Source: Thermoplasmata archaeon (GTDB lineage: Archaea; Thermoplasmatota; Thermoplasmata; GCA-020350865). From it: a DNA stretch of 24,000 nt. The translations under genes were made by a program, and so were the position numbers. A model generated the notes under the pieces. The model ran no database searches. It had not been told where the DNA came from and saw only the letters and a list, made by a program, of their open reading frames with translations. Shown here piece after piece: positions 1,024-17,116 of this stretch. The number at the start of each line of letters is the position of its first letter. The stretch's first letter is position 1. The stretch is from the NCBI GenBank assembly GCA_020348445.1, contig CP070751.1, positions 2,551,447 through 2,575,446 of the forward strand, in the 5' to 3' direction.

Positions 1024-1724
1024 ATCCCTCCAATCTTTTCCTTTAAATCCTCAATTTTTGAGGCCATTTCTTGAATTGCTATGCGTTTTCTCAACATGAA
1101 CATATACAGAAATGAGAAAGCTACAACACCAACTAAAAGACCGATTCCTGTTTCAGAAGACATGGACCCCTCACTTGTTGCCACAACATTTGGATGCATG
1201 CTCTGCCATATCCTTGAAGATATGAACGACAAGGGAACACATGCAAAACCAATGATTCCGAAAACAGCTGCAAGCCTGGCTTTATTCTCGCTTTCCACAC
1301 CCCCTCTCAGTAATAGATATGCCAAGAAAATCAGCCATAAAACGAACGTTATAGTGAGCTTGGTGTCCTCCCACCTCCAGTAAACACCCCACTCTGCTTT
1401 TCCCCATATTGGACCTGTTACAATGGCAAGGGTGCAGAAAACAACACCGATTTCGGCAGAGGCAAATGCTATGGTATCCCATTTTCTTAAGCTGTTTTTA
1501 AGATATAGTACTGACATTATGAAGACCACTCCGAAAGCCAAAAACGATACCCAAGCTGCTGGAACATGAAAGTAGAAGATTTTCTGTGCTTTTGGCGCAC
1601 TCCAGCCATCTTCTTCCCTGACCTCAGGGGTATAGATCAGAGCTGTATATATTGAAAGCAAGACAAAGAATACTGTGAGAATCAGAATAACTGTCTCCAA
1701 CCTTTTATCGAACTTCATCATCAT
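1020..1724 (-). CDS. ccmC: Heme exporter / heme-handling protein CcmC
   Basis: Polytopic membrane protein with the tryptophan-rich heme-handling motif WGKAEWGVYWRWEDTKLT (compare WGxxWxWDxRLT). Sits between ccmB and ccmD. Confidence 0.85.
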   Translation of the reverse strand: MMMKFDKRLETVILILTVFFVLLSIYTALIYTPEVREEDGWSAPKAQKIFYFHVPAAWVSFLAFGVVFIMSVLYLKNSLRKWDTIAFASAEIGVVFCTLAIVTGPIWGKAEWGVYWRWEDTKLTITFVLWLIFLAYLLLRGGVESENKARLAAVFGIIGFACVPLSFISSRIWQSMHPNVVATSEGSMSSETGIGLLVGVVAFSFLYMFMLRKRIAIQEMASKIEDLKEKIGGI

Positions 1725-2404
1725 TCCTCTAAGACAAAATCGAACAGGAGATATGCGATTGCGATGTATATTACAGCAAACACTCCCAATATCCTCAACT
1801 CGGGTATTGCATCTATAATATCGCCCTCTAAAGCCTTCGATGTGGCGTTTACAGAAGGCATTAACACTGTTAATAGGATAATAGGTATTAATAATATTGG
1901 TATCAACACACCCCTAATATCCTGGGCATTTACCGCAATTCCCGAAATGAGGGTTCCTGAAACGACAAAACAAAAAGTACCCAGAAACACCACCACTAGG
2001 ACTGGGAGTAAATTCCCGTTAAAGTCATATGAAAAGAATAAAACAAAGAAAATCAACGCAAAGATGTCAACAAGAAGTATTAGAAAGTAATTGGACAAAA
2101 CTTTACCGAAGTATATTGCCGACCTGTCCATGGGACACAACATAAGACCCTCCAATGAACCCCGGTCTTTTTCTTTTGAAAACGAGGTGAGAAGGCCGAA
2201 CATTCCCGCGAAGAAAAATGTAACCCATAATATGGGTGAAACAAGAGGTTCCAGGGCCTCTGACGAAAGAGAATAGAAGTAAAATGCAAAATAAAAGGCT
2301 ACCATGACGAATAACGAAAACACAAGCATGGAGAATACCATCTCCTTTGTCCTGAATTCGGTTTTTATGTCCTTAATGGCTATTGCCAGGCCCTGAGACA
2401 TCAT
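1721..2404 (-). CDS. ccmB: Heme exporter permease CcmB (ABC-2 type)
   Basis: Six-TM hydrophobic protein immediately downstream of ccmA. I prefer the start at MMSQGLAIAIKDIK (ATG 2404-2402), which gives an ATGA overlap with the ccmA stop. The ORF-track start at 2473 would overlap ccmA by 73 nt. Confidence 0.8.
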   Translation of the reverse strand: MMSQGLAIAIKDIKTEFRTKEMVFSMLVFSLFVMVAFYFAFYFYSLSSEALEPLVSPILWVTFFFAGMFGLLTSFSKEKDRGSLEGLMLCPMDRSAIYFGKVLSNYFLILLVDIFALIFFVLFFSYDFNGNLLPVLVVVFLGTFCFVVSGTLISGIAVNAQDIRGVLIPILLIPIILLTVLMPSVNATSKALEGDIIDAIPELRILGVFAVIYIAIAYLLFDFVLEE

Positions 2405-3111
2405 TTTTGAGCCCCCATAAGGCCATGGTACTTCCCCTTGAAAGCCTCTATATCCATATTCTTCTTCTCGCATTCAAAGGCAACCTTTCCATTGACAAGT
2501 ATCGCCAGTCTTTCTCCGATTCTATGGCCAAGTTCAACATTGTGAGTTATCAAGAATATGGTTTTACCCTCCTCATGGAACTTCCTAAGAATGTCTGTCA
2601 ACATCTCCCAAGCCTTATAATCAAGGCCGGTGTAGGGCTCGTCTAATAGGAGAACCGGGGGATTATGAAGAATTACTCTTGCAACAGCAGCCCTTTGTTT
2701 CATACCTCTAGAGAATTGACCCACCCTATCATTCATTCTATGTAATAATCCCACCTCATCAGCCAAGGTTTTTAATGTTTTCTCATCCTTTTTTAATTTG
2801 TACATCCTTGAATAGAAAATCAGATTCTCCTTTAAGGTGAGATCATCATAAAGAAATGGATTGTGGGACAAAACACCTATTGTGCTTCTCACTTCCATTG
2901 ACTCCTCTTTGATGTCAAATCCATTTATGATCACATTTCCGGATGAGGGTCTTGAAAGAGTGGATAGAATCTTGATAAGAGTTGTTTTTCCAGCACCATT
3001 TGGTCCAAACATAACAAGGAACTCACCAGATTCGGCTTCCAAGTTCAAGTCGCATAAAACCTTCTTTCTTCCAAATCTCTTTTGGAGGTTTTTGATTTCT
3101 ATTGCGGGCAT
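2401..3111 (-). CDS. ccmA: Heme exporter ABC ATPase CcmA
   Basis: Walker A GPNGAGKTT, ABC signature FSRGMKQR, Walker B LLLDEP, H-loop ITHN. First gene of the ccm operon. Confidence 0.85.
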   Translation of the reverse strand: MPAIEIKNLQKRFGRKKVLCDLNLEAESGEFLVMFGPNGAGKTTLIKILSTLSRPSSGNVIINGFDIKEESMEVRSTIGVLSHNPFLYDDLTLKENLIFYSRMYKLKKDEKTLKTLADEVGLLHRMNDRVGQFSRGMKQRAAVARVILHNPPVLLLDEPYTGLDYKAWEMLTDILRKFHEEGKTIFLITHNVELGHRIGERLAILVNGKVAFECEKKNMDIEAFKGKYHGLMGAQK

Positions 3112-3199
3112 TACCGCGTAATCTACGGATTGCCTTAAAATGTTTTGGATTTTTAAAATGGCTTATATTTTCCGGCTCTTCTTGTTTATAATAATTTTT

Positions 3200-3230
3200 G
3201 GGCGGGAGGTGGGGATTTTGGCGGTGGGGG
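3200..3230 (+). other. G-quadruplex-forming motif in the ccmA/acd divergent intergenic region
   Basis: GGG C GGG AGGT GGGG ATTTTGGCGGT GGGGG: four G-runs of 3 or more with loops of 1, 4 and 11 nt. The surrounding intergenic sequence is AT-rich. Confidence 0.35.
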
Positions 3231-3273
3231 TTTTGTGGTGGTCAATATAATTACATAAATGAAGAGATAAAGA

Positions 3274-3280
3274 TTATAAA
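3274..3280 (+). promoter_or_regulatory. Candidate TATA box for acd
   Basis: TTATAAA lies 38-44 nt upstream of the ATG at 3318. A GAGG Shine-Dalgarno-like element at 3303-3306 lies between it and the start. Confidence 0.3.
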
Positions 3281-3317
3281 CCATAATTGTATCATTACTC
3301 CCGAGGATTGAATTTCC

Positions 3318-5453
3318 ATGTCCGAGAACCTAGATGCCATATTCAAACCACGCTCAATAGCGGTTGTAGGCACATCAAGAAAAGAAGGTACCATTGGAAG
3401 GGAGGTACTCCATAACCTAGTGGCCTACGGCTTCAACGGGCCCGTATACCCAGTGAACCCTAAAGCTGAGTATGTCAACAGCATAAAGTGTTACCCCAAT
3501 GTATCCACGATCCCCGACGGAGTGGATTTGACCATCATAGTTATTCCAAAGGAAAATGTCCTCTCCGTTGTTTCCGAATGTGGAGAAAAGGGAGTAAAAG
3601 GCATCGTGGTAATTTCAGCGGGATTCAAGGAGATAGGGGAAAAAGGAATTCAGCTTGAAAAAGAACTTGTAGGTTTGATTAAAAAATATGATATGAGGCT
3701 AGTTGGCCCGAACTGTATGGGCGTAATTAACACAGCCAAGGATATCAGGATGGATGCCACATTTGGATCCACATTACCTCTCGACGGGCATGTGGGTTTC
3801 ATGTCCCAAAGCGGTGCCCTGGGCAACATTATCCTGGAATACGCAGACGAGCTTAAAATCGGATTCTCGAAATTCATCAGCATGGGAAACAAGGCTGATG
3901 TCTCAGGCAATGACATGTTGATGGACCTGGAGAATGATGAAAACACGAACATAATTCTCATGTATTTGGAGAGTTTCGGCAACCCAAGGAAATTCGTTAA
4001 GATTGCAAGGAGGCTGACCAAGAAAAAGCCCGTTATCGCGGTCAAGGCAGGCAGAACCAGGGCAGGGGCAAAAGCCGCCTCTTCCCATACCGGGGCCCTT
4101 GCTGGCTTGGATGTGGCTGTTGATGCACTTTTTGAGCAATGCGGGGTTCTGAGAGCCACCTCAATTGAAGAGCTGTTTGATTATGCGCTGGCCTTTTCCA
4201 ATCAGCCATTACCTGAGGGAAAAAGGGTGGCAATAGTTTCAAATGCAGGTGGGCCAGGTATAATCGCCACTGATGCATGCGTCAGTCTTGGCCTTGATAT
4301 GAGCACATTCGAGGATGAGACATACCAAAAATTGAAAAATGCGCTGCCCGAGGAAGCCAGCACCCAAAATCCTGTTGATATCCTTGGAGATGGAGGGCCA
4401 GAGCGTTACGAGAAGGCCTTGGATGCCGTATTAAAGGATAAGAACGTTGATGCAGTAATTACCATATTTGTACCGCCTTTAATGAGCAGAGCATTGGATG
4501 TCGCATTAGCCATATCAAATGTGAGTGCAAAATATCATAAACCAGTCCTTGGCTGCTTCATGGGTCGAGAGGAGGTGCTCACAAGCATCCAGGAACTTGA
4601 AAAGAACAACATCCCTGCCTACCTTTTCCCCGAATCTGCGGCAAAATCAATAGCAGGCATGTATAAATTCAACGAATACAGACGCAGAAGGGAGGGGGAT
4701 ATTAGGCAGTTTGATGTAGATAAGGAAATGGTCCAAAATATCATCTCGAAGGCAAAAGACGCGGGGAGAACATATCTTTCTCAAAACGAGGTGAAGGAGA
4801 TTTTAATTGCCTATGGATTCAGCTTCCCGCAATCGCAATTGGCGAAAGGTGAGGATGAAGCGGCAAACATCGCAAAGCGTATTGGATTCCCAGTGGCTTT
4901 AAAGATCGCCTCCGATGAAATCATACATAAATCAGATGCCAAAGGCGTGGCTTTAGATCTTAAAGACGAGAAAGAGGTAAGAGAGGGTTATAAGCAAATC
5001 CTCAAGGAGGTGGGACAAACTACTTCTGCAACAAAGATAGATGGCATCGTGGTTCAAGCCATGGTAAAAGGCGGTAAAGAAACGATATTGGGTATGAGTC
5101 TCGATCCCAATTTTGGACCATTGATCATGTTCGGTTTAGGCGGCATATATGTGGAAGTTCTCAAGGATGTGACCTTCAGGATAGCTCCGATTACGGATTT
5201 GGATGCCCAGGAGATGATCAAGAGCATAAAGAGCTATCCTTTGCTCTCAGGAATCAGGGGCGAGGAGCCAGCAGATATCGATTCCATAGAGGAGTATATT
5301 CAAAGACTTTCCAGATTGGTGGAGGATTTCCCAGAGATAGAAGAACTGGATGTCAATCCCCTTGTCGTATTCGAGAAAGGAAGATGCTGTAATGTCGTTG
5401 ACGCCAGGATAAAGATTGGTCCTTCATATGAGCTAAAAAGGTACAAGTTGTGA
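3318..5453 (+). CDS. acd: ADP-forming acetyl-CoA synthetase (acetate--CoA ligase, fused alpha/beta, NDP-forming acyl-CoA synthetase family)
   Basis: N-terminal CoA-binding fold (SIAVVGTSRKEGTIGREV), MSQSGALG, and the phosphohistidine segment AKAASSHTGALAG. The C-terminal ATP-grasp half contains FPVALKIASDEIIHKSDAKGV. At 711 aa it has the typical length of fused archaeal ACD. Confidence 0.85.
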   Translation: MSENLDAIFKPRSIAVVGTSRKEGTIGREVLHNLVAYGFNGPVYPVNPKAEYVNSIKCYPNVSTIPDGVDLTIIVIPKENVLSVVSECGEKGVKGIVVISAGFKEIGEKGIQLEKELVGLIKKYDMRLVGPNCMGVINTAKDIRMDATFGSTLPLDGHVGFMSQSGALGNIILEYADELKIGFSKFISMGNKADVSGNDMLMDLENDENTNIILMYLESFGNPRKFVKIARRLTKKKPVIAVKAGRTRAGAKAASSHTGALAGLDVAVDALFEQCGVLRATSIEELFDYALAFSNQPLPEGKRVAIVSNAGGPGIIATDACVSLGLDMSTFEDETYQKLKNALPEEASTQNPVDILGDGGPERYEKALDAVLKDKNVDAVITIFVPPLMSRALDVALAISNVSAKYHKPVLGCFMGREEVLTSIQELEKNNIPAYLFPESAAKSIAGMYKFNEYRRRREGDIRQFDVDKEMVQNIISKAKDAGRTYLSQNEVKEILIAYGFSFPQSQLAKGEDEAANIAKRIGFPVALKIASDEIIHKSDAKGVALDLKDEKEVREGYKQILKEVGQTTSATKIDGIVVQAMVKGGKETILGMSLDPNFGPLIMFGLGGIYVEVLKDVTFRIAPITDLDAQEMIKSIKSYPLLSGIRGEEPADIDSIEEYIQRLSRLVEDFPEIEELDVNPLVVFEKGRCCNVVDARIKIGPSYELKRYKL

Positions 5454-9062: not shown

Positions 9063-9195
9063 GCGGGGGAAGGGTGTGTCCGAGATTAAGATTAAAGTTG
9101 AATAATAACATAACTCGGACACACAGCCATTTTGTGGTGTCTGAGCTTAAGACAAAATTGATGTATTAGTATAACTTGAACACAAGTCCCCCGCA
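9063..9195 (-). pseudogene. tRNA-Leu-derived relic / tRNA-like element sharing both acceptor strands with the adjacent tRNA-Leu
   Basis: 9063-9074 gcgggggaaggg is identical to 9225-9236 (acceptor 3' strand plus T-stem 3' strand). 9188-9195 cccccgca is identical to 9343-9350 (acceptor 5' strand). The interior is three hairpins, including a perfect 11-bp inverted repeat at 9074-9084/9114-9124. There is no T-loop or anticodon-loop consensus. Confidence 0.4.
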
Positions 9196-9223
9196 TCGCA
9201 TTCAATTTAAAAATAATTTAAGG

Positions 9224-9349
9224 TGCGGGGGAAGGGATTCGAACCCTTGAACCACTTCTGGACAGGATGTCCAAACAAGGCGCGTAAATTGAACCCTTAC
9301 ACCTAGGATCTTAAGTCCTGCGCCGTTGGCCATGCTTGGCTACCCCCGC
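9224..9349 (-). tRNA. tRNA-Leu (anticodon UAA) with a 41-nt intron at position 37/38
   Basis: Reverse complement: GCGGGGG TA GCCAAGCATGGCCAACGGC G CAGGA CTTAAG[intron ATCCTAGG...TTTGGAC]A TCCTG, long variable arm, AAGGG TTCGAAT CCCTT CCCCCGC A. Perfect 7-bp acceptor, class II D-arm, discriminator A73. Mature length 85 nt. CCA is not encoded. Confidence 0.8.
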
Positions 9350-9367
9350 ATTTAAGCGGATTCCACC

Positions 9368-9478
9368 TGAGGGGGTAGCCAAGTTCACTTCCCAAGGAAA
9401 CCAAAGCATTTATCATCGAATTGTGGTTTCCTGGGCACAGAGGGGTCTGAAGGACAACTCTAGTGGGCTACCCCTGCA
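9368..9478. repeat. Inverted pair of tRNA-Leu 5'-end copies forming a long composite hairpin
   Basis: 9368-9384 (+) tgagggggtagccaagt matches the tRNA-Leu 5' end tgcgggggtagccaagc at 15/17. 9462-9478 read on the minus strand, tgcaggggtagcccact, matches at 13/17. Because they face each other, 9372-9380 pairs with 9466-9474 (9 bp). This encloses a 12-bp bulged hairpin (9391-9403 / 9424-9435). Confidence 0.5.
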
Positions 9479-9696
9479 TTATGGCAGCACAACCAAAAGG
9501 TATAAGCATAGAGGTTTTTTGTTTTTTCTATTCGAGAGGGATTTTCAGGGATGTTTAAATGCCAGATTTGACCATGTGAACCTGGAAAAAACCCAAAAAA
9601 ACCAAAAATTAATGTATATGTTCGGGTATAATAAGATGTTTAAGATATCAATCTGGAGGTATTTACGTAAGCGATATAACCCAAGCTCTCTCAAAT

Positions 9697-10446
9697 GTGG
9701 CGTATCAAACCTATGAAAAGAGGCTACTTAAGGAGGTCCAAGAGGGACCTATCCCAAAACACATAGCCATTATAATGGACGGCAACAGGAGGTTTGCCAG
9801 GGAATTGGGTATTGAACCAACAGATGGGCATCTTAAGGGTAAGGATAAACTGGAGGAGGTAACTGATTGGTGCCTGGAAGTAGGGGTTAAGATCCTCACT
9901 GTATTTGCATTCTCCACAGAGAATCTGAAGAGAAAGACCCAGGAAATAGACAAGCTAATGGCGCTATTTACAGAAAATTTTCGAAGGGCCGGTGATGATG
10001 AAAGGGCTCATAAACATGGAATAAGAGTGAGAGCCTTGGGACAGAGGAACCTATTACCAAAAGAGGTCCAGGATGCCATAGCCTATGCCGAGGAAAAAAC
10101 AAAGGATTACGATAATTACTTCTTCAATATCGCCGTGGCCTACGGTAGCAGGGAGGAGATATTAAGGGCCATCAAAAACATTGCAGATGATGTAAAGAAC
10201 GGAAACCTGAATTCCGATGATATTGATGAGAAGGTATTTTCTTCTTATCTTTATACAGCTGATCTACCAGACCCTGATCTTGTGCTTCGGACATCTGGTG
10301 AGGAGAGGGTATCAAACTTCCTTTTATGGCAGTTGGCATACTCAGAACTGTATTTTGCTGACATATACTGGCCTGGATTTAGAAAAGTAGAGTTTCTTAG
10401 GGCGATTAGATCTTACCAGAAGAGACAGAGAAGATTTGGTACGTAA
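9697..10446 (+). CDS. uppS: cis-prenyltransferase (undecaprenyl-diphosphate synthase family)
   Basis: HIAIIMDGNRRFA, FAFSTENLKR and RTSGEERVSNFLLWQLAYSELYF motifs. The start is GTG at 9697, with no in-frame ATG upstream. Confidence 0.9.
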   Translation: MAYQTYEKRLLKEVQEGPIPKHIAIIMDGNRRFARELGIEPTDGHLKGKDKLEEVTDWCLEVGVKILTVFAFSTENLKRKTQEIDKLMALFTENFRRAGDDERAHKHGIRVRALGQRNLLPKEVQDAIAYAEEKTKDYDNYFFNIAVAYGSREEILRAIKNIADDVKNGNLNSDDIDEKVFSSYLYTADLPDPDLVLRTSGEERVSNFLLWQLAYSELYFADIYWPGFRKVEFLRAIRSYQKRQRRFGT

Positions 10447-10475
10447 ATTGTCCATCAATTTTCATCCCATGACAG

Positions 10476-10484
10476 TTTTTTTTT
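10476..10484 (+). terminator. Oligo-T terminator candidate after uppS, in a convergent gap
   Basis: T9 run 30 nt after the uppS stop. On the other strand it reads as A9. Confidence 0.35.
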
Positions 10485-10521
10485 ATCTTTGTCAATCGCA
10501 ATATCCCAAAATATGGAGTTT

Positions 10522-12606
10522 CTAACTCACGATCTGGAAAAGATTCCTTTTCAAAAAATTTCCAAGATCTTTTTGACAATACCCGCATTCTGTAATTCCC
10601 TCCTCTATTGAATTGTGTAAACAATGTACGTGATAAGGCTTTTTGCATTGAATGCAGGGCATCTCGCAAAGGTCCTTGGTTTCCACAACAGGTTGCGTTA
10701 AAAGAGGAAGGCCACATACTGGACATTCTTTTTGACCGCATATTAAACATTTGAACAAGGATGTATTCCATAAAGATAAAGAAAGCCTATTTATTGCATC
10801 AACTAAAAACATACTGGGGGCCCAAGATTTCAATATATCAGTAAAAAAGGCTTTTACAGATTCCTTAAGTTCTAGATCACCAATATCGACTAAAATCTCG
10901 GGGGGAACAAGTGGGTAGGCCTGTGGGACCTTGATATTTAACTGGATCCGTTTAATTTTGGGTGCTGCTTCCCCTAAAATATCTCCCGTAGACGAGGGAA
11001 CTGGTATTGTAACCTTATATCCACCATCCACTACCTCAAAATCTTCAGTAACCAATCTCAGTAGTAATTCTTCGAACTCTCTTCTATATATATTATTTAT
11101 GACCTGGGAGAGGTTCCGAAGAACATCCATTATCCTCTTTTGCGGTTTCTTGGGCCATTTTTTGATTCCCTCCAGTTCCTCTATATCCAAGCCTTTCAGT
11201 TCTTTAGGTAAAGTTACCACAGGGGGAGAGGGGTATCCTCTTAAATCCATATCGATATCGATAAATTTCGGTCCATATGTTGATATCCTTATAAGGAACC
11301 TGTTCTTGCTCAATCTTTCGGCTCGATACTCCCTTTTGATGACCTCGAATTCACTTTCTATCATGGAATCCTCCACCAGCCTAACCTCTATACCCTGTAG
11401 AATATCCACGAGATTAGGTGTAAACACATCCTCCCAGTGCTTCAATTTCTTGAAGATTTCTTCAATACCGCGGATCCTGATCAACAGATCATCAGTGAAG
11501 GTTATGGATGGTTTTTTCGGGAACTCCTTATAATTTATGGTAACGGGATAGATGTTGTAAATCCCAGCATCCAGACATGAAAGGTAGACTACTACATGAT
11601 ACATTTTATCTCCGACCAACTCCAAAGAGAAATTGTTGGAAAGGTCCAGATACTGCGAAATCGCCTCCTCGTTCTCGAAGGAATCTTCAGTGGCTTCTGC
11701 ATCTGGTATCTCAAAATCGTAAGATGGCTCAATTTCAAAAAATGTTTCAGGAAGAACCTCCTTTACCTCAAACACCTCTTCTGAATCGATATCTGAGGAT
11801 TGTGGAGTTACCTCGATAAATTCCCCCTCAGGTAGAACCTCGACAACCTCTTCATTTTTCTCTTCACTTGACTTTTTACCATTTTCAATTTCCTTTACCT
11901 CGGATTGCTTATCCTCCCTCTCAGGATCTTCTTCCTTTATTTCTTCAGATGGTTTTATCCTGGATTGTATATTATAAAGCACATCCACAAGTCTTGGAGG
12001 GGACTTGGGATCCCAGTTGTTCAGATTTTCAAGCAATTCATCTAAACCGTCGATATTCACAAGGAGCTCATCAGTAAAGGAGAAGGTTGGCTTTTTTGGG
12101 TAATATTCAAAATCTATATTGACAAAGTACTGCTCACCGTCTGGCGAGTTTAAAAACACCGAGATGTCCCTGATGCTGCCGTCGATTAAAGCCAAAGAGA
12201 ATTCATCACTTAATTCAAGATACTGGTTGTAGATCTCTTCAGGTATCAGGCTGACCTCTACAGCGGTCTCTTTACCAGGCTCGAGATCTAAAGGAACGGG
12301 AATGTAGCAATGGGGGCATATTCTCTCTGCACCGTCGACACCAGATATGGCATTAAAATACTGCTCGATGCAACCCTTATGGAAGGCCACACCGCATATA
12401 TGTTCGTAATCGGCACCACCCCGCCTGCAGATAGCACATTCTTTTGTTTTTTGCACAACAGTTCTTAGTTTGTGCTGGAATCCGGATTCCACGTCCTTTT
12501 CTGATGATCGAGAAAATTTATTTTTTGGTACCCATATGGGAATCATAGGTATAAGAAATGACAAAGCGCAAATTTTTTTAGATAACAAGGATGGGAAACC
12601 TATCAT
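10522..12606 (-). CDS. Putative ubiquitin E3 / scaffold: RING-like finger, four tandem RWD/UEV-like (inactive E2-fold) modules, second RING-like finger
   Basis: The N-terminal finger has 8 ligands: C57-x2-C60-x8-H69-x-C71-x4-H76-x2-C79-x17-C97-x2-C100, with the RING-H2-like core CGVAFHKGCIEQY. Four repeats each carry the UBC/RWD hallmark YPxxP(P): EYYPKKPTFSF, KEFPKKPSITF, RGYPSPPVVTL, QAYPLVPPEIL. None has an HPN motif or a Cys at the catalytic position. The C-terminal finger is C628-x2-C631-x19-C651-x2-C654-x4-H659-x2-C662-x11-C674-x2-C677, with additional Cys at 620, 623 and 647. Lies on the same strand, 114 nt downstream of the Ubl-E1-E2-JAMM genes. Confidence 0.7.
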   Translation of the reverse strand: MIGFPSLLSKKICALSFLIPMIPIWVPKNKFSRSSEKDVESGFQHKLRTVVQKTKECAICRRGGADYEHICGVAFHKGCIEQYFNAISGVDGAERICPHCYIPVPLDLEPGKETAVEVSLIPEEIYNQYLELSDEFSLALIDGSIRDISVFLNSPDGEQYFVNIDFEYYPKKPTFSFTDELLVNIDGLDELLENLNNWDPKSPPRLVDVLYNIQSRIKPSEEIKEEDPEREDKQSEVKEIENGKKSSEEKNEEVVEVLPEGEFIEVTPQSSDIDSEEVFEVKEVLPETFFEIEPSYDFEIPDAEATEDSFENEEAISQYLDLSNNFSLELVGDKMYHVVVYLSCLDAGIYNIYPVTINYKEFPKKPSITFTDDLLIRIRGIEEIFKKLKHWEDVFTPNLVDILQGIEVRLVEDSMIESEFEVIKREYRAERLSKNRFLIRISTYGPKFIDIDMDLRGYPSPPVVTLPKELKGLDIEELEGIKKWPKKPQKRIMDVLRNLSQVINNIYRREFEELLLRLVTEDFEVVDGGYKVTIPVPSSTGDILGEAAPKIKRIQLNIKVPQAYPLVPPEILVDIGDLELKESVKAFFTDILKSWAPSMFLVDAINRLSLSLWNTSLFKCLICGQKECPVCGLPLLTQPVVETKDLCEMPCIQCKKPYHVHCLHNSIEEGITECGYCQKDLGNFLKRNLFQIVS
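10576..10749 (-). other. C-terminal RING-like zinc finger with an extra Cys pair (aa 620-677)
   Basis: CLICGQKECPVCGLPLLTQPVVETKDLCEMPCIQCKKPYHVHCLHNSIEEGITECGYC. It has the same pair2-x4-pair3 spacing (C-x2-C-x4-H-x2-C) as the N-terminal finger. Confidence 0.5.
10771..12246 (-). other. Array of four RWD/UEV-like E2-fold modules (aa 121-215, 311-410, 413-507, 508-612), with an acidic linker at aa 216-310
   Basis: Modules 1 and 2 align at roughly 40% identity by eye (EEIYNQYLELSDEFSLALIDG...YYPKKPTFSFTDELLVNIDGLDELLENLNNWDP..LVDVL versus EEAISQYLDLSNNFSLELVGD...EFPKKPSITFTDDLLIRIRGIEEIFKKLKHWED..LVDIL). Modules 3 and 4 keep the helix-strands-YPxxPP-helix layout. Confidence 0.5.
12307..12438 (-). 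other. N-terminal RING-like cross-brace zinc finger (aa 57-100 of the 694-aa protein)
   Basis: CAICRRGGADYEHICGVAFHKGCIEQYFNAISGVDGAERICPHC: four ligand pairs (C,C / H,C / H,C / C,C) with spacings compatible with RING/PHD. Confidence 0.55.
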
Positions 12607-12710
12607 GAAAGTGCCTCTTCTTTAATCAAAATAACCGCATAAGCGCAATAAAAAGTTTTCCATTGGATTTTACTGCTGTGTTTTAAATATCAGATATAAA
12701 TTCTTATCTC

Positions 12711-12720
12711 AAATAAAAAA
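12711..12720 (-). terminator. T-rich tract immediately after the JAMM stop (possible attenuating terminator before the RING gene)
   Basis: The minus strand reads TGA TTTTTTATTT. It is followed by AT-rich TATA-like elements: TTTATAT at 12694-12700, TTTAAAA at 12681-12687 and TTTTTATT at 12647-12654. Confidence 0.3.
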
Positions 12721-13926
12721 TCAAAGTTCTATCCCGCAGTTTGCGCAGCTTGAATCACCTGGCATTATGGAATCATATCCACAGAATTCGCATTTAGCGG
12801 CTTTCTTGCGCTTTTCCTTCTTATGATCCTTTTTTAGCTTATCAATTGCCTTGTCCGTGGATTTTTGGTGCGACTCCAGTTTAATGCCCACAGATTGCAT
12901 ATCTTTTTGTATCTTCTGGACGAACTTACCCATTTCATCGATGGTCTTCTCCAGATTCTCCACCTTTTCAGTTAAAACGTGTTTCGGCCTCGCGTATTCC
13001 TCCTTGTACTCAAGAACCAATGGATAGCCCTCAGCAAGAAGCATTGTAGCTTCCACCATACAATCCAATACATCCTGTATGATATGCTCTACCTCAACAT
13101 TCTCTATCTCGACAAACTCCGATTTCTCCCCCAACTCAGGTGATTTTAACCTGAAAATCTTCAGATATTCATTGAGTTGAATTCCTTCTTTGAATTTAGA
13201 TGGATCAAAGACTATTGCCACGGCTTTGGGATTCAAGGATTGGTAGCCAGAGTGATTGACCCTGTCCACAGGGGATAAAAACAGCCCATGGCCTGGGTGC
13301 GTGTGATACCATCCAACAATCCAGTTTTCATCTGTCAGGTCTTGGTTTATCTCGTCGGCTTTGGCATAGTGCTCATTTTGGAATTCTACCTCAACCAAAC
13401 TACCGTGAACAATGGGAATTGCATCCATTATCTGTACTTTGGAATCGTCCACATTCCCAACGAGAAATCCCATGCATTCCACCCAATCCTTTCGTGGTGC
13501 CTTGGGATTGGAAAACCTCATTCCATGCCTAAGCACTTTGTTCAAGGCCCTATAACTGATTAAAACCTTTTCCTTTTCTTTTGGGGGGATCTCCTCCTTT
13601 TCCTCTAATGCCCCTTTCATAGCAACTTCTTGTATATCAGTTTCAGCCAGTTCATCAAGCTCTGATAGATAATCGTCTATTTCTTTCTCTTTCTTTTCCT
13701 CCATTTCCTTGGGCCTTTGCTCGATTTTCTCTTCTTTCTTTTCCTCGATTTCTTTGGGCTCTTTTTCTATCTCTTCCTCAATTTCCCTGGGTTCTTTTTC
13801 TATTTCTTCCCTCAATTGGGAGGACTCCTTTTTGAGCTTCCTTTTAGATTTCTTTCTTTTGACCTTAATCCTCTTTTTCTTAGGCATAATTCTGTGTCCA
13901 CTCCTTGGCCTTATTATCGAATTCAT
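12721..13926 (-). CDS. JAMM/MPN+ metalloisopeptidase (Rpn11/CSN5-like deubiquitinase) with a polybasic/EK-repeat N-terminus, coiled-coil region and C-terminal zinc ribbon
   Basis: Complete JAMM motif: E150 (WVECMGFLVG) and H208-T-H210-P-G-H-G-L-F-L-S218-P-V-D221 (codons 13264-13305). C-terminal ribbon CEFCG-x12-CANCG (12739-12792). An alternative start at M14 (ATG 13887) would overlap the E2 stop by 8 nt; the listed start overlaps E2 by 47 nt. Confidence 0.85.
   Translation of the reverse strand: MNSIIRPRSGHRIMPKKKRIKVKRKKSKRKLKKESSQLREEIEKEPREIEEEIEKEPKEIEEKKEEKIEQRPKEMEEKKEKEIDDYLSELDELAETDIQEVAMKGALEEKEEIPPKEKEKVLISYRALNKVLRHGMRFSNPKAPRKDWVECMGFLVGNVDDSKVQIMDAIPIVHGSLVEVEFQNEHYAKADEINQDLTDENWIVGWYHTHPGHGLFLSPVDRVNHSGYQSLNPKAVAIVFDPSKFKEGIQLNEYLKIFRLKSPELGEKSEFVEIENVEVEHIIQDVLDCMVEATMLLAEGYPLVLEYKEEYARPKHVLTEKVENLEKTIDEMGKFVQKIQKDMQSVGIKLESHQKSTDKAIDKLKKDHKKEKRKKAAKCEFCGYDSIMPGDSSCANCGIEL
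13699..13808 (-). repeat. Imperfect 33-nt tandem repeat encoding EEIEKEP(R/K)EIE units in the JAMM N-terminal region
   Basis: 13743-13775 versus 13776-13808 are 28/33 identical. A third, more degenerate unit lies at about 13699-13734. The protein reads EIEKEPREIEE-EIEKEPKEIEE-KKEEKIEQRPKEMEE. Confidence 0.6.
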
Positions 13927-14416
13927 CTTTATTGTATTTATACTGGGCTCCAGCCTCTCTGTTTAGGGGATCGTCCGGATTGAAGAAAGGAGGATAGCAA
14001 TGTATCATGAGTTTCAGACATTCAATGAGCATGGACAAATCTTTTGTGGGTGTCCATCCCATGGTTTTACTCTCGGGATCCACCTTCCCTATCCTGTCCG
14101 GGTTAATGATATCAAAACATACATTGTCCTTCCAAAAGCTCTGTGTCGGAGGGGCTCTGTTGATGTCTATATTGGGATGCCATATTCTGGTATGGCAGAA
14201 CACGCCTGGTGGATAGAACGGGTAATTGTTGAAGGTCTTGATCTCGAAAACGAACCTTCCGTCTTCATAGGGTGTTTCCTCTGCGCCATAAATCGTAACC
14301 TTCAAATGACCAACGAAAGACGCCCCAGGCCAAAGCTCTATTATAACGTATCTATCATTCTGAAAGCGTTGCAAGGCTTCAAAATAATCCCTCTCTATGC
14401 GCTCGAAATCCGCCAA
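13880..14416 (-). CDS. Ubiquitin-conjugating enzyme E2 (UBC fold, catalytically competent)
   Basis: YPFYPPGVFCHTRIWHPNI (YPxxPP plus the HPN triad at aa 80-82). Catalytic Cys100 in NVCFDII (codon 14117-14119). WTPTKDLSMLIECLKLMI and NPDDPL helix motifs are present. The start codon is TTG at 14416, 2 nt after the E1 stop, with GGAGGG 7-8 nt upstream inside the E1 3' end. Confidence 0.85.
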   Translation of the reverse strand: MADFERIERDYFEALQRFQNDRYVIIELWPGASFVGHLKVTIYGAEETPYEDGRFVFEIKTFNNYPFYPPGVFCHTRIWHPNIDINRAPPTQSFWKDNVCFDIINPDRIGKVDPESKTMGWTPTKDLSMLIECLKLMIHCYPPFFNPDDPLNREAGAQYKYNKDEFDNKAKEWTQNYA

Positions 14417-14418
14417 TA

Positions 14419-15654
14419 CTAGCCCTCCATCTCAATAATGAACTCAGCTTGTTCTCGCTTCAGTTTGCCGTTTTCATCGACAGATGTGTATGTGGCTCTG
14501 AGTATATCACGATTTTGGATTGGTAGATCAGACAATCTACTTCCCATGATGTCTTGGCCGGGAGCTGCGATCACTGATCCATCTATGATCTTGGTGATCA
14601 AGACCGTCTCTTTCAAATCCACTCCTTCTTTTTTAAGCGATGATAACATATCAGCAAAAGTAGAATCACTCTTCATTTTAAGGCTCAATTTCACCCTTTC
14701 CTTTCCGCATACAGCACAATTCTCATCCTTGGAGATTTCCACAGGGGTGAATATCCCGTAAGAAGAGCTATATTCAAGATATGAGGGTGACATTATCTCA
14801 CCAATATTAAGGCCCGAAAGGCGGTGAAGGATTTTCAGCACCTCATGGGAGACTATAGCCGATATGACCGCATTGACAGTCAATATGGAAGGGATTTTGT
14901 TCTCTATTATATTCTCCACCTCATGGGGCATGAATTCTTCGGCCTTCGTATGCGGGGATTCCTTTGAAAGCCTGGATGCGATTTTCGCAATCATATCAAG
15001 TTCCTTGTCTGAATATTCTTTATGAATACCATGCTCTTTTACGAACTCGTCCTCAGCCTTGAGTATACACTGCTCCCGGCTTCGGGGTTCGCCTGGGATA
15101 GAACAAGCAACGTACACCTTTTCATCTGCTGGAGGTATGGGAAAGAAGCATCGAAGACAGGGAGTTGCATCTTTTAAGAGAGGATCACCTTCCGGGATTA
15201 TCACCTGGACATTTCCCTTGAAACCAGTTGCAGCTCCATCAACATATGGCTTGCACAATTCATGTGCCAACCTGTTTAAAGCGAACCTTGCGGAAAAAGA
15301 GTCCAGGCCTCCTGCAATGAGATCCACACCCTCGAATACACTCATTGGTAAATCTTGAAATTTTTGGGTATAGGTTTCGATACTAACATCCGGATTTAGA
15401 ATCTTCAGTTTTTCTTTGGCTACCTCAGCTTTGAGTCTGCCTCTATCATTGTCAGTAAAAAGCATCTGCCTCGAAAGGTTCGAGGTCTCGATAGTATCCA
15501 TGTCTATCAAAATTAGATTCCCAACACCCACTAAAGCAAGGTTCTTTGCAATCTCACAACCCAATGCCCCTATACCAACGATTAGCACATGGGAAGAAGA
15601 AATGACGTCTTGGTCCCAACCCTCAAGGGAAAGATGTCTGGCATACCTTGCCAT
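14419..15654 (-). CDS. Ubiquitin-activating enzyme E1 (compact ThiF/MoeB-fold adenylation domain with catalytic-Cys insertion and C-terminal UFD-like domain)
   Basis: RYARHLSL...VLIVGIGALGCEIAKNL (GxGxxG), TSNLSRQ and DSFSAR adenylation motifs. Two CxxC pairs (CLRC, CAVC). Catalytic segment VACSIPGEPRSREQCI resembles the eukaryotic UBA3-type PMCTIASMPRLPEHCI (Cys codon 15103-15105). The last ~90 aa are beta-grasp-like. I prefer the start at MARYARH (15654), 10 nt after the Ubl stop. The ORF-track start at 15741 would overlap the Ubl gene by 77 nt. Confidence 0.85.
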   Translation of the reverse strand: MARYARHLSLEGWDQDVISSSHVLIVGIGALGCEIAKNLALVGVGNLILIDMDTIETSNLSRQMLFTDNDRGRLKAEVAKEKLKILNPDVSIETYTQKFQDLPMSVFEGVDLIAGGLDSFSARFALNRLAHELCKPYVDGAATGFKGNVQVIIPEGDPLLKDATPCLRCFFPIPPADEKVYVACSIPGEPRSREQCILKAEDEFVKEHGIHKEYSDKELDMIAKIASRLSKESPHTKAEEFMPHEVENIIENKIPSILTVNAVISAIVSHEVLKILHRLSGLNIGEIMSPSYLEYSSSYGIFTPVEISKDENCAVCGKERVKLSLKMKSDSTFADMLSSLKKEGVDLKETVLITKIIDGSVIAAPGQDIMGSRLSDLPIQNRDILRATYTSVDENGKLKREQAEFIIEMEG

Positions 15655-15664
15655 ATCTTTTTTA

Positions 15665-15940
15665 TCACTGGAAAATCCAACCACCCGCTTGTTGAGTAAT
15701 GATGGTAATGGTATCCTTTTCAGGTTTGTGGCCCAGATCATTCAACTTCTTTGAAAACACATCATTATCGGAAATGGGCTGGCCCTTATAGATTAGCTGA
15801 ATCACCAAAGCCTGGTGAATCTTATAGGCATTTCTTAGGAGGTTCTTTGTGTCCTTGCATGATGCTTCCTTCGGCACGTTTACAGATTTCGTGCCCTGGT
15901 TTGGCGGCAAACCCATCATCCTAAACTTGTATCTTGGCAT
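15665..15940 (-). CDS. Ubiquitin-like beta-grasp modifier precursor (C-terminal GG followed by the 4-residue propeptide WIFQ)
   Basis: 91 aa. ...LIYKGQPISDNDVFSKKLNDLGHKPEKDTITIITQQAGG-WIFQ parallels ubiquitin [34 protein letters not shown]. GG codons at 15680-15685. AGGTGA Shine-Dalgarno element at 15945-15950, 4 nt before the ATG. First gene of the cassette. Confidence 0.75.
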   Translation of the reverse strand: MPRYKFRMMGLPPNQGTKSVNVPKEASCKDTKNLLRNAYKIHQALVIQLIYKGQPISDNDVFSKKLNDLGHKPEKDTITIITQQAGGWIFQ

Positions 15941-16074: not shown

Positions 16075-16794
16075 TTAGAACTCAGTTTTCTCAGTAATAA
16101 CCCTTGTTACCTGAAACTCTCCATCACCATAAAGCAGGGTGTAATAATCTGGACTGTGGTTGGTACTCCTCATCTTAACGCATCTAATTCTTCTTTGTAT
16201 TGTAACGCCGTCCACGTTCTCCATTGTCAGGTGGATTATACCATCAGCCAGAAAATCCTCGCCGTATTTCCCGAAGTCCCTTGCACTCTGACTCATTTCT
16301 GAGATTAGGATTGTGGTTGAGTCCAGTTCCTTTAGCCATTCAAAGAGGTGGAAAAGGTCGTTTCTCGGCTCCGCAAAGTTCGCCAAAAGCTCCAAAACGG
16401 GTAAGGTGTCTAGGACCAATATATCGTAATCCATGTTCTTTTTGAGATTCTGGGCGTACATCTTGAATATTTGAGCCCAGGTCTGCTGTCCCAGTTTATC
16501 CAGATTCTTCCTAATCAGCGATAGATCCACCAAACTGATATTATCCTTCACCTCGTTGAAATTTAGTCCCATGGTTGCTATGTGATCCAGAAGACCCTCT
16601 CTGCTTTGCTCTAAAGTTATGTATGCACCTTTTAAGTTGTTCATTTGAGCGTTTTTGAATATTATGTAAAACGCTACCGAGGATTTCATGGTGCCAGGTT
16701 CACCCAAAATGAGAATATTGTGGCCCCGTGGAATCCCGCCATTCATCTTTTCATCAAATCCCTCAATATAGGTCTTGATACGCTCTTGCACCAT
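16075..16794 (-). CDS. Single-domain KaiC/RadA-like (RecA-superfamily) ATPase with an atypical Walker A
   Basis: IPRGHNILILGEPGTMKSSVA (Walker A with Met where the GK[ST] glycine is expected; codons 16681-16704), Walker B DILVLDTL, and a KaiC-like C-terminal beta-rich region. Lies directly upstream of the Ubl cassette on the same strand. Confidence 0.75.
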   Translation of the reverse strand: MVQERIKTYIEGFDEKMNGGIPRGHNILILGEPGTMKSSVAFYIIFKNAQMNNLKGAYITLEQSREGLLDHIATMGLNFNEVKDNISLVDLSLIRKNLDKLGQQTWAQIFKMYAQNLKKNMDYDILVLDTLPVLELLANFAEPRNDLFHLFEWLKELDSTTILISEMSQSARDFGKYGEDFLADGIIHLTMENVDGVTIQRRIRCVKMRSTNHSPDYYTLLYGDGEFQVTRVITEKTEF

Positions 16795-17000: not shown

Positions 17001-17116
17001 CGCTGAGGAGGAGATTCGAACTCCCGCGGTGCAGAGCACCACCGGCTATCAGGGTCTTTTTCGTTTCGTTTGAACTCTCAAGGCCGGCGCCGTAAGCCTG
17101 GCTTAGCTACCTCAGC
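17001..17116 (-). tRNA. tRNA-Ser (anticodon UGA) with a 29-nt intron at position 37/38
   Basis: Reverse complement: GCTGAGG TA GCTAAGCCAGGCTTACGGC G CCGGC CTTGAG[intron AGTTCAAACGAAACGAAAAAGACCCTGAT]A GCCGG T GGTGC TCT GCACC GC GGGAG TTCGAAT CTCCT CCTCAGC G. Perfect acceptor stem, 5-bp variable-arm stem, discriminator G73. Mature length 87 nt. Confidence 0.8.

Follow-up and report, generated by a model that had tools for sequence, protein, structure and literature searches.

A predicted ubiquitin-like conjugation and deconjugation cassette with a FANCL-like RWD/RING protein in Thermoplasmata-labelled genomes

Components of the cassette

According to our analysis, five consecutive ORFs at positions 10522 to 15940 encode a ubiquitin-like protein (Ubl), an E1, an E2, a JAMM isopeptidase and an E3-like protein. 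They lie on the minus strand of a window of 24,000 nt from the Thermoplasmata archaeon assembly GCA_020348445.1 (contig CP070751.1, 2,551,447 to 2,575,446, forward strand); positions given here are those of the window, and all features described are on its minus strand. A first-pass annotation had reported this five-gene ubiquitin cassette, and all five ORFs were found where it had placed them; five such genes cannot plausibly adjoin by chance. The computational checks that it had suggested all spoke in its favour. GenBank automatically names four of the five (UCE39485 to UCE39488) as E3 ubiquitin protein ligase, Mov34/MPN/PAD-1, E2 and ThiF family, while the Ubl is listed as hypothetical.

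The Ubl precursor (15665..15940) has 91 aa, of which Met1 to Gly87 (15680-15940), ending in TQQAGG, form the mature part, followed by a WIFQ tail (15668-15679) and the stop codon (15665-15667). The earlier description of a beta-grasp protein ending in GG plus a tail agrees with its AF2 model (pLDDT 87.5; beta-beta-alpha-beta-beta-alpha-beta topology), whose top Foldseek matches in the PDB are ubiquitin and SUMO, with a target-normalised TM of 0.76 to 0.83 and an rmsd of 2.3 to 2.8 Å. Matches by sequence are weak (Pfam ubiquitin 0.0054, below threshold for the single sequence; SUMO2 0.0017 by profile). In homologs, which are about 90% identical, TQQAGG is invariant and is followed by 0 to 5 variable residues.

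The E1 gene (longest ORF 14419..15741, 440 aa; Pfam ThiF 2.3e-58, above threshold) likely starts at GTG 15684 (421 aa) or ATG 15654 (411 aa, the GenBank call). The residues listed in the first-pass annotation are in place: GIGALG from residue 56 (15559-15576), the zinc pairs C195xxC198 (15148-15159) and C342xxC345 (14707-14718), and the predicted catalytic Cys213 in VYVACSIPGEP (15103-15105), a segment that aligns to the UBA3 sequence nfpmCTIASmPRlpEhCI. A C-terminal domain of about 95 aa follows (14422-14706). Cys213 and both CxxC pairs are invariant in the aligned Thermoplasmata and Asgard E1s. Against the PDB, the best scores are to Uba1 (1.8e-37) and UBA3 (4e-33, residues 46-357), ahead of MoeB (1.1e-24) and ThiF (1.5e-22); judged by its sequence, the protein is a UBA3-like E1 with a catalytic-Cys domain.

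The SAMP/UbaA, MoaD/MoeB and ThiS/ThiF sulfur-carrier systems share with the cassette the E1 adenylation fold and a GG-ended beta-grasp carrier, and in NCBIfam the N-terminal half of the E1 best matches ThiF, MoeB and UbaA models (1e-44 to 1e-35). These matches, however, lie far under the curated cut-offs (150 versus 275 bits, 120 versus 450) and cover only residues about 25-208. Sulfur-carrier systems lack an E2, a RING and a Cys-domain insertion, whereas here the E1 carries its UBA3-like Cys domain and is encoded together with a RING/RWD protein and a dedicated E2 of the UBC type. Moreover, neither MoaD nor ThiS is among the 50 best fold matches of the Ubl, which are all ubiquitin, SUMO or related ubiquitin-like proteins, and no sulfurtransferase or cofactor-synthesis genes were seen nearby among the window genes checked. 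It is thus extremely improbable that the cassette is a sulfur-carrier system, perhaps with a protein-tagging side activity, as the first-pass annotation had also concluded.

The E2 gene (13880..14416; 178 aa, TTG start; Pfam UQ_con 2.6e-22, above threshold) encodes HPN80-82 (14171-14179) and the predicted catalytic Cys100 (14117-14119), with an insertion of 10 residues from HPN to Cys and a further 9 inserted in total after Cys. Its PDB matches include UBE2T (3.2e-16) and UBE2D (about 1e-15), whose catalytic Cys aligns with Cys100; five clade members all keep HPN, Cys100 and the insertions unchanged. The JAMM/Rpn11-like isopeptidase (12721..13887; Pfam JAB 9.3e-15, above threshold) has 388 aa when counted from ATG 13887, the start conserved in homologs, within a longest ORF of 12721-13926. 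It comprises a K/E-rich N-terminal region (13573-13887), the catalytic E150 and the motif H208-T-H-x7-S218-x2-D221 (13264-13305), and, towards the C-terminal end, a coiled coil and a CxxC...CxxC zinc ribbon (12736-12792), the latter kept in the clade bearing the E3-like gene and absent from L014. The PDB matches are Rpn11 (4.6e-15), the Caldiarchaeum Rpn11-like structure 6fjv (8.3e-13) and CSN5 (about 1e-9), and E150, H208, H210, S218 and D221 are invariant in the aligned relatives. The catalytic residues previously assigned to both enzymes are correct, and the UBC and JAMM assignments are solid according to Pfam, the PDB and relatives.

The E3-like protein and its relatives

The fifth gene (10522..12606) encodes a protein of 694 aa, which had been described as a double-RING protein. 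Its RING-type fingers hold up, but the architecture is richer, since four RWD-like domains lie between them. From the N-terminal end, we find a RING/PHD-like cross-brace finger (C57-C100; 12307-12438), RWD1 (residues 120-218; 11953-12249), an acidic disordered linker (222-310; 11677-11943), RWD2 (311-398; 11413-11676), RWD3 (399-492; 11131-11412), RWD4 (493-614; 10765-11130) and an Rbx1-like RING zinc module (C620-C677; 10576-10749). Taken alone, the protein stays below the Pfam thresholds for RWD (0.0014) and zf-RING_2 (0.0048), as the Ubl does for ubiquitin, whereas the ThiF, UQ_con and JAB assignments proposed earlier pass theirs. The Ubl, RWD and RING assignments are firmed up by Foldseek searches with the AF2 models and by family profiles. 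Among 25 members of the E3-like family, zf-RING_2 is matched in 24, RWD in 23 and UQ_con in 16, with FANCL_C in a single member (0.015); hhalign relates RWD1 to RWD2 with 99.6% probability. The relatives show no variation in any zinc ligand or in the YPxxP motifs, and the RWD region contains no invariant Cys across those aligned.

The AF2 model has a pLDDT of 72 overall and of 73 to 92 in the folded parts. The structure search that the first-pass annotation had proposed led to FANCL, RWD and E2 folds, besides ubiquitin and SUMO for the Ubl. FANCL, the eukaryotic Fanconi anaemia E3 with an ELF, a double RWD and a C4HC3 RING, is the best solved structural match (human and Drosophila; 2.2e-8, 1e-7, 2.2e-5 and 5e-5, over about 400 columns), followed by Listerin (1.3e-3); the Knl1 double RWD, E2s and the GCN2 RWD were also matched. 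In FANCL as in the 694-aa protein, several non-catalytic UBC-like domains in a row precede a C-terminal cross-brace finger, and the RWD2-4 plus RING core appears to reproduce the domain count and order of FANCL. In contrast to FANCL, the RWD-like domains number four and a second finger sits at the N-terminal end; the C-terminal finger looks like the three-zinc Rbx1 type; and the Fanconi pathway context is absent. Sequence similarity to FANCL is not significant, FANCL does not appear among 60 listed matches of the family profile against the PDB, and the TM-score is low (0.14-0.27) because domain orientations differ. The protein is, in our view, one with four tandem non-catalytic UBC/RWD-like domains between two fingers, and it resembles FANCL. 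Elsewhere, arrays of inactive E2-like (RWD) domains joined to a RING are known from eukaryotic ligases, FANCL among them.

The broad family profile matched UbcH5B (8.1e-5), UBE2L3 (2.6e-4) and RBX1 (6.5e-4) in the PDB. Of the solved structures, chains of RBX1, which like APC11 is a three-zinc RING-H2 protein, come closest in sequence to the C-terminal module, although at marginal values in this family-profile search (6.5e-4 to 1.2e-3), and were weaker in other searches. The pattern C-x2-C...YHVHC...C-x2-C, with 12 candidate ligands, resembles the FHFHC core of Rbx1, Y-H659-V-H661-C662 mirroring F-H-F-H-C, which suggests a three-zinc finger. Differently from Rbx1, its C-x-H pair is replaced by C651-x2-C654, the cullin-binding N-terminal strand is missing, and no cullin was seen.

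Gene junctions, conservation and host

The junctions described by the first-pass annotation are accurate. The Ubl and E1 genes are separated by a 10-nt gap or share a 77-nt overlap, and the GTG start, which the JGI gene calls use, gives a further possibility, an overlap of 20 nt. The E2 gene follows E1 after 2 nt, and its start is preceded, 8 nt upstream, by a GGAGG inside the E1 3' end. E2 and JAMM overlap by 8 or 47 nt, the alignment of homologs favouring 8. Packing this tight suggests that the first four genes, and only these, are co-transcribed and translationally coupled. The first-pass annotation had likewise read co-translation as one unit from it; the E3-like gene is probably its own transcription unit. 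The 114-nt spacer between JAMM and the E3-like gene (12607..12720, read directly from the sequence) contains a T-run (TTTTTTATTT) immediately after the JAMM stop, then AT-rich TATA-like boxes and GAGG 8 nt before the E3 ATG; the T-run may act as a terminator and the boxes as a promoter. Such roles agree with an E3 gene set apart in L001 and L012 and devoid of cascade neighbours in L005.

These features raise the alternative that the first four genes conjugate while the 694-aa protein is a separately transcribed scaffold or reader, whose adjacency would reflect shared regulation or history only. RWD and UEV domains are able to bind ubiquitin-like proteins. Both fingers show the spacing C-x2-C...C-x2-C-x4-H-x2-C...C-x2-C, which fits PHD fingers too, and weak PHD matches occur beside the RING ones. 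The gene lies about 190 kb from the other four in CP070739, lacks them as neighbours in L005, and stands alone in relatives of the Asgard (Promethearchaeota included) and P0164 types as well as in L016, so that the pairing with the cascade rests on adjacency in one clade and on domain logic. However, all contigs examined from the closest clade retain that adjacency, the cassette has no other RING gene, and those genomes checked that bear the E3-like gene also have the E1/E2 set. Together with the zf-RING_2 and RBX1 matches and the whole-protein match to a bona fide E3, FANCL, this leads us to regard a non-E3 role as unlikely.

The depositors' labels of cassette hosts are Thermoplasmata or Methanomassiliicoccales, outside Asgard and Aigarchaeota. 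Caldiarchaeum and Asgard archaea are the lineages that had been named earlier for such operons, and the present host label falls outside both. The cassette recurs, within one and the same housekeeping synteny, in several related MAGs; MAGs and metagenome contigs obtained independently preserve the order of the five genes between PheT, a KaiC-like gene and a UPP synthase. The KaiC-like ATPase gene (16075..16794; Pfam KaiC/ATPase 1.2e-41) is directly upstream of the Ubl gene on the same strand and keeps its position in L002, L006 and L012 but not in L014; we regard it as a conserved neighbour and only as an unproven candidate member of the system.

Outside the own clade and a group at 51-55%, the nearest E1s among the best 120 matches belong to Hel-, Loki-, Hod- and Promethearchaeota. 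The distant relatives of the E3-like protein, all labelled hypothetical, come from Promethearchaeota and Lokiarchaeota MAGs and share RWD1-4 and the C-terminal RING. Given these Asgard affinities, and a source record that is large for Thermoplasmata (5.16 Mb), one might suspect that mis-binning or mis-assembly placed Asgard DNA in Thermoplasmata MAGs. However, the Asgard E1s, which have the same Cys and C-terminal domains, are just 41-44% identical when aligned, and the Asgard relatives of the E3-like protein just 22-25%. The same housekeeping flanks recur on long contigs (up to 94 kb read, with the same protein on record on a 298-kb contig). These contigs represent several JGI samples and four or more MAGs that were assembled separately, each carrying a Thermoplasmata or Methanomassiliicoccales label. 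A preprint (10.1101/2023.07.25.550441) independently lists a Thermoplasmatota E2 clade. We deem such an artefact highly improbable.

Bil-type systems have the same four-gene composition of Ubl, E1, E2 and JAB. An antiviral defence module of the bacterial Bil (PMC10557695) or CBASS Cap2/Cap3 kind, instead of a housekeeping system, would fit that composition, and in PADLOC the E1 adenylation core matches Cap2 "E1-E2" models (1.7e-21) and the JAB model is matched at 8.7e-5. Nonetheless, the PADLOC E1 matches are confined to the generic adenylation core (residues 44-162), and Ubl, E2 and E3 have no match in the 2023 PADLOC-DB, which may lack newer systems. The cassette E2 belongs to the eukaryotic UQ_con type, the E1 has its closest relatives among Asgard E1s of ESP type, and the conserved housekeeping synteny is accompanied by a GC content without anomaly; a defence role is in our opinion very unlikely.

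Proposed working and comparison with known systems

We consider it likely that the cassette is a chromosomal, vertically kept and working ubiquitin-like conjugation and deconjugation system of eukaryote/Asgard type with a FANCL-like scaffold E3. The JAMM protease would cut the 91-aa precursor after Gly87, exposing the di-glycine end, which E1 would adenylate at the expense of ATP and then bind as a thioester on Cys213 before the Ubl is handed on to Cys100 of E2. As the putative E3, the 694-aa protein would bind E2~Ubl through its Rbx1-like C-terminal RING, while the four-RWD/UBC-like array may serve as a scaffold docking substrates or partners, as the RWD lobes of FANCL do; the N-terminal finger may be a lineage-specific addition. 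The same JAMM enzyme would take the Ubl off its targets. UBE2T, the partner of FANCL, is nominally the top PDB match of the cassette E2, with a trivial lead over UBE2D.

One of the closest known systems is the operon of "Ca. Caldiarchaeum subterraneum" (Aigarchaeota), which likewise has a GG-ended Ubl, a single-chain E1, a UBC E2, an Rpn11-like JAMM and a RING protein, and for which precursor processing by the Rpn11 homolog and the E1/E2/RING cascade were demonstrated in vitro (PMC6043591, PMC5654768). The two differ in host lineage, in the E3, a small RING finger there and a 694-aa four-RWD, two-finger protein here, and in the K/E-rich N-terminus, coiled coil and zinc ribbon added to the Thermoplasmata JAMM. 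No Caldiarchaeum E1 occurs among the best 120 E1 matches, where the names outside the own clade are Asgard only. Asgard ubiquitin systems also include E1-like, E2-like, RING and ubiquitin proteins, counted among the eukaryotic signature proteins; their E3 relatives lack the N-terminal finger, and in the one examined the E1/E2 genes do not adjoin. These distant Asgard relatives temper the novelty that had been claimed for the E3-like partner. As for an undescribed variant, we found no paper on the cassette or its ligase architecture, but GenBank automatically annotates the same cassette here and in the genomes of relatives. Ubl (85-90% identity) and E2 (82-90%) are conserved above E1 (75-77%), JAMM (55-66%) and the E3-like protein (about 60%), the pattern that a modifier and its carrier would be expected to show.

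Gene layout and the core cascade

According to our analysis, the five consecutive ORFs described in the first-pass annotation as a ubiquitylation cassette are present exactly at the positions assigned to them, all on the minus strand: a ubiquitin-like modifier (Ubl; 15665-15940), an E1 (14419-15741), an E2 (13880-14416), a JAMM protease (12721-13926), and a 694-aa E3-like protein (10522-12606). The junction distances reported there also agree with the sequence. The first junction varies with the E1 start: the ATG at 15654 called in GenBank leaves a 10-nt gap after the Ubl stop, the GTG at 15684 called by JGI in relatives gives a 20-nt overlap, and the longest ORF gives a 77-nt overlap. E1 and E2 are separated by 2 nt, with GGAGG placed 8 nt ahead of the TTG that starts E2, and E2 overlaps the JAMM gene by 8 nt when the latter is read from 13887 (MPKKK...), the start common to all homologs. 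The gene encoding the 694-aa protein is preceded by a 114-nt spacer, beginning with TTTTTTATTT; AT-rich, TATA-like boxes and a GAGG of its own lie within this spacer. The GC content varies little over the region (0.40 to 0.44). The interpretation as a ubiquitylation cascade is supported by a beta-grasp Ubl, a Uba1/UBA3-like E1, a UBC E2, and a JAMM protein with an intact motif, but what had been said of the host lineage, the E3 architecture, the operon boundary, and existing automatic annotation needed correcting.

By sequence alone, the Ubl gives weak matches to Pfam ubiquitin (E value, 0.0054) and, with a family profile, to SUMO2 (0.0017); the single-sequence PDB search was uninformative and the family profile was needed. 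Its AF2 model is a beta-grasp (pLDDT 87.5), for which a Foldseek search of the PDB places ubiquitin and SUMO on top, with target-normalised TM of 0.76 to 0.83 and rmsd of 2.3 to 2.8 A. The homologs are about 90% identical and share an invariant TQQAGG, followed by either no residue or 3 to 5 variable ones, and this Gly-Gly with an absent or variable tail is the pattern of a processed ubiquitin precursor. As no Arg or Lys lies close to this end, trypsin digestion would be expected to leave a long remnant of the Ubl on a modified Lys.

The E1 matches Pfam ThiF above threshold (2.3e-58). Against the PDB, its best match is the active adenylation domain of Uba1 (1.8e-37), followed by full-length UBA3 (4e-33, residues 46-357), with MoeB (1.1e-24) and ThiF (1.5e-22) ranking lower. 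Both CxxC zinc pairs align with UBA3, and the inserted segment VYVAC213SIPGEPRSREQCI aligns to the catalytic-Cys segment of UBA3, nfpmCTIASmPRlpEhCI, so that Cys213, which is invariant in relatives, falls on the UBA3 catalytic Cys. The C-terminal domain of about 95 aa is conserved. We set aside the reading of the system as a sulfur carrier since the E1 lies below every NCBIfam cut-off for that function (ThiF, 150.6 versus 275 bits; MoeB, 150.3 versus 449; SAMP/UbaA, 120.5 versus 450), and these models align to the N-terminal half of the protein only. Beyond its own clade, the nearest relatives of the E1 are a group at 51 to 55% identity and then Asgard E1s, whose domain layout is identical and whose identity is 41 to 44% in the alignment (up to 49% by local BLASTP).

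The E2 matches Pfam UQ_con above the cut-off (2.6e-22), and a full-length alignment with UBE2T and UBE2D puts Cys100 at the position of the active-site Cys. The HPN motif and the catalytic Cys, which are separated by a 10-residue insertion, are invariant within the clade. A 'Ca. Thermoplasmatota E2' clade has been placed deep in the E2/UEV tree (preprint 10.1101/2023.07.25.550441); our placement of the E1 and E2 is based on score ranking and on the statement in this preprint.

The JAMM protein matches Pfam JAB above threshold (9.3e-15) and, in the PDB, Rpn11 (4.6e-15), the solved Caldiarchaeum Rpn11-like protein (8.3e-13), and CSN5. Its motif, E150 with H208-x-H-x7-S-x2-D, is present, and the catalytic residues are invariant in relatives. 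The K/E-rich N-terminal region, about 40 to 60 aa longer in the window's protein than in homologs, contains a 33-nt tandem repeat (13732-13817; 2.6 copies, 84% match). On the JGI contig 3300041082 Ga0452208_009191 (2737-4152), E2 and JAMM are called as a single product of 471 aa that combines a UQ_con and a JAB domain, and on its sister contigs they are two overlapping genes; the single product could be a genuine fusion, or it could stem from a frameshift or from faulty assembly.

Architecture of the 694-aa protein

The product of the last gene had been described as a double-RING protein. A finger is indeed found at each end, but the alignment of 25 homologs and the AF2 model place four UBC/RWD-like domains between the two. 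The model has a pLDDT of 72 overall and of 73 to 92 in the folded parts, where four alpha-plus-beta-meander domains (RWD1 to RWD4; approximately residues 120-218, 311-398, 399-492, and 493-614), each made of a four-strand meander with flanking helices, are enclosed by a zinc module at each end; an acidic disordered linker (222-310) separates RWD1 from RWD2. The UBC-type proline motifs Y169-P-K-K-P, F-P363-K-K-P, Y458-P-S-P-P, and Y564-P-L-V-P-P are invariant among the 25 homologs, and no Cys is invariant in this alignment between residues 100 and 620. Fold, YPxxxP-type motif, and the absence of a catalytic Cys are thus those of non-catalytic UBC/RWD domains.

As with the Ubl, a single-sequence PDB search was uninformative and a family profile was needed. 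Of the 25 members, 23 match Pfam RWD (best, 4.5e-6) and 16 match UQ_con, and a broader family profile run against the PDB gives significant E2 matches on RWD4 (8.1e-5) and RWD1 (2.6e-4). According to hhalign, RWD1 and RWD2 (99.6%) are a clear duplication, and RWD3 is related to both (72 to 84%). RWD4, the two fingers, and the cassette's own E2 gave no link to other RWDs in hhalign, and we accordingly make no claim of an origin of the RWDs from this E2.

In the Foldseek search of the PDB, FANCL comes first, with human core-complex chains (2.2e-8, 1e-7, and 2.2e-5) and Drosophila FANCL (5e-5) matched over about 400 columns, followed by Listerin (1.3e-3), the Knl1 double RWD, many E2s, and the GCN2 RWD; TM-scores of the fold matches are low because inter-domain angles differ. 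The Foldseek result and the domain map agree in that the 694-aa protein, like FANCL, carries UBC-like domains in tandem and, after them, a predicted RING at the C-terminus. By sequence, in contrast, it stands apart from the FANCL family, since Pfam FANCL_C matches one of the 25 members (0.015) and no other FANCL model does, and FANCL is missing among the 60 matches listed in the family-profile PDB search.

Twelve candidate zinc ligands of the C-terminal module are invariant (C620, C623, C628, C631, C647, C651, C654, H659, H661, C662, C674, and C677). The window protein alone scores 17.6 bits with zf-RING_2, under the cut-off of 27.3, and this model matches 24 of the 25 family members (best, 8.2e-5). 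The broader family profile matches RBX1 in the PDB (6.5e-4), and Y-H659-V-H661-C662 parallels the F-H-F-H-C of Rbx1; we infer by analogy that the module may be a three-zinc Rbx1-like RING. In the N-terminal finger, C57-x2-C60-x8-H69-x-C71-x4-H76-x2-C79-x17-C97-x2-C100 is invariant in the alignment. The finger is closest to the variant RING of NSE1 (0.0042) and reads like a RING-H2 (CGxxFHxxCIxxYF) with one ligand apparently displaced.

Ahead of this finger, residues 1-30 form a short proline-bearing hydrophobic stretch (..ICALSFLIPMIPIWVPK..) that is semi-conserved, with M21-I-P invariant or nearly so. The start of the protein differs between gene callers (M1, M21, or V39) and AF2 is unconfident there; the stretch could be a membrane-associating tail or be untranslated.

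Distribution and gene order

A word-index search for the 694-aa protein returned 31 homologs, all with at least 47% identity, most of which lie on metagenome contigs; those with a taxon name belong to Thermoplasmata or Methanomassiliicoccales. Scanning 185,579 GTDB species representatives with the two N-terminal finger patterns recovered four species. From 1.84 billion representatives, an exhaustive profile search retrieved 84 proteins, only a handful of them full length. In its second tier (1e-55 to 1e-35), where the match runs from RWD1 or RWD2 to the C-terminal RING, we found proteins of Promethearchaeota annotated as hypothetical, together with a short form from Thermoplasmata (N-finger, RWD2-4, C-RING), and among weaker matches to RWD1 alone the named proteins are again from Lokiarchaeota and Promethearchaeota.

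The order PheT, KaiC-like ATPase, Ubl, E1, E2, JAMM, E3, UPP synthase is repeated on JGI contigs and in two NCBI MAGs. In CP070739.1 (Methanomassiliicoccales bin396), the four-gene unit is in the usual place, interrupted near its E1 end by an insert of unrelated ORFs that measures about 2.8 kb (9150-11931, between the E1 body and a 97-aa ORF abutting E2), and a distance of about 190 kb separates the other four genes from the E3 gene, which is accompanied by UPP synthase; two ORFs of the insert were scanned and had no Pfam match. At another locus (L005), the E3 gene adjoins UPP synthase and no cascade gene stands beside it. A more distant group (L014) has Ubl-E1-E2-JAMM only, and both the Asgard E3 relative, at the one locus examined, and the short Thermoplasmata form stand alone. 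Since the four-gene order is kept where the E3 gene is elsewhere or absent, Ubl-E1-E2-JAMM is the stable core, and the E3 gene is a neighbour that probably has transcription signals of its own.

Alternatives concerning the whole locus were also considered. A defence system (CBASS Cap2/Cap3 or Bil-like) was set aside, as PADLOC returned a generic E1 core and a weak JAB and the synteny is housekeeping; the PADLOC-DB (2023) search gave no model match for Ubl, E2, or E3. A binning artefact was likewise set aside.

The KaiC-like ATPase gene (1.2e-41; 16075-16794, minus strand) is directly upstream of Ubl on the same strand. It occupies the same place in every E3-bearing clade member examined and is not found in the four-gene L014 group; a functional link with the cassette is possible.

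Proposed cycle and position in the archaeal record

The best-supported reading of these genes is a cycle of ubiquitin-like conjugation and deconjugation. The precursor would be matured at Gly87 by the JAMM protease, and the Ubl would then be carried on E1 Cys213 and on E2 Cys100; the role of RING E3 would fall to the 694-aa protein, with its RWD array as the docking site for substrates or partners, and the modification would be reversed by the JAMM protease. Work on Caldiarchaeum is a direct precedent for the first four of these steps (PMC5654768, PMC6043591). The weakest link of the cycle is the E3 role of the 694-aa protein, which could instead be a non-cognate scaffold or reader; its gene adjoins the cascade genes in one clade only.

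Archaeal ubiquitin operons are the main evidence on the origin of eukaryotic ubiquitylation, and the account so far is based on Asgard archaea and on Aigarchaeota, whose RING E3 is small. Grau-Bové et al. reported ubiquitin toolkits in Aigarchaeota, Crenarchaeota, and one marine-group-II euryarchaeote (PMC4327156), eukaryotic signature proteins (ESPs) including the ubiquitin system were mentioned without detail in Thermoplasmata MAGs (preprint 10.1101/763623), and the archaeal RWD-like record of Tromer et al., 2019, is a single Asgard sequence (PMC6601020). In the literature on RWD, FANCL, and RING in archaea, we found neither the architecture nor the cassette described. The window's proteins already have GenBank entries (UCE39485-UCE39489), which belong to a 'Thermoplasmata archaeon' record of 5.16 Mb and bear the automatic names E3 ubiquitin protein ligase, Mov34/MPN/PAD-1 family, ubiquitin-conjugating enzyme E2, ThiF family adenylyltransferase, and hypothetical protein. 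Sister records measure 2.5, 3.2, and 4.2 Mb. A size of 5.16 Mb is large for Thermoplasmata, and these records may be genuine chromosomes or, alternatively, bins that were concatenated.

The cascade belongs to the type already established in archaea and eukaryotes. The host lineage, the candidate E3 with four RWDs and two fingers, and the Asgard relatives of the latter appear undescribed. The locus adds to the archaeal record a complete, chromosomally fixed cassette in a Thermoplasmata-labelled lineage and a candidate E3 with tandem non-catalytic UBC/RWD domains, and it ties the family of this protein to Asgard proteins that lack annotation. Should E3 and cascade truly belong together, the locus would provide a small system of five proteins for testing how an RWD scaffold and RING fingers cooperate, and a dated point of reference for the emergence of FANCL-, Listerin-, and Rbx1-like ligases. 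Tentatively, and with more doubt than confidence, the multi-RWD family with an Rbx1-like RING, shared by the Thermoplasmata clade and Asgard archaea, might represent the prokaryotic stock of eukaryotic RWD-RING ligases (FANCL-like and Listerin-like), perhaps also of the three-zinc Rbx1/Apc11 RING. Were this true, scaffold-type E3s and RWD duplication would be older than eukaryotes, and the operon-linked version would be a tractable minimal system with cognate Ubl, E1, E2, DUB, and E3. The locus is of interest for ubiquitin-ligase evolution, although eukaryote-like archaeal ubiquitin operons in themselves no longer come as a surprise.

Elsewhere in the window, Rfam identified two minus-strand tRNA genes, at 9224-9349 (126 nt, 45.2 bits) and 17001-17116 (116 nt, 36.6 bits), both missed by ARAGORN, which reported no tRNA in the window; their length suggests intron-containing archaeal tRNAs. 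A cluster of CcmE/CcmC/CcmB/CcmA-like cytochrome c maturation genes (353-3111, minus strand) hints at a respiratory lifestyle of the host.
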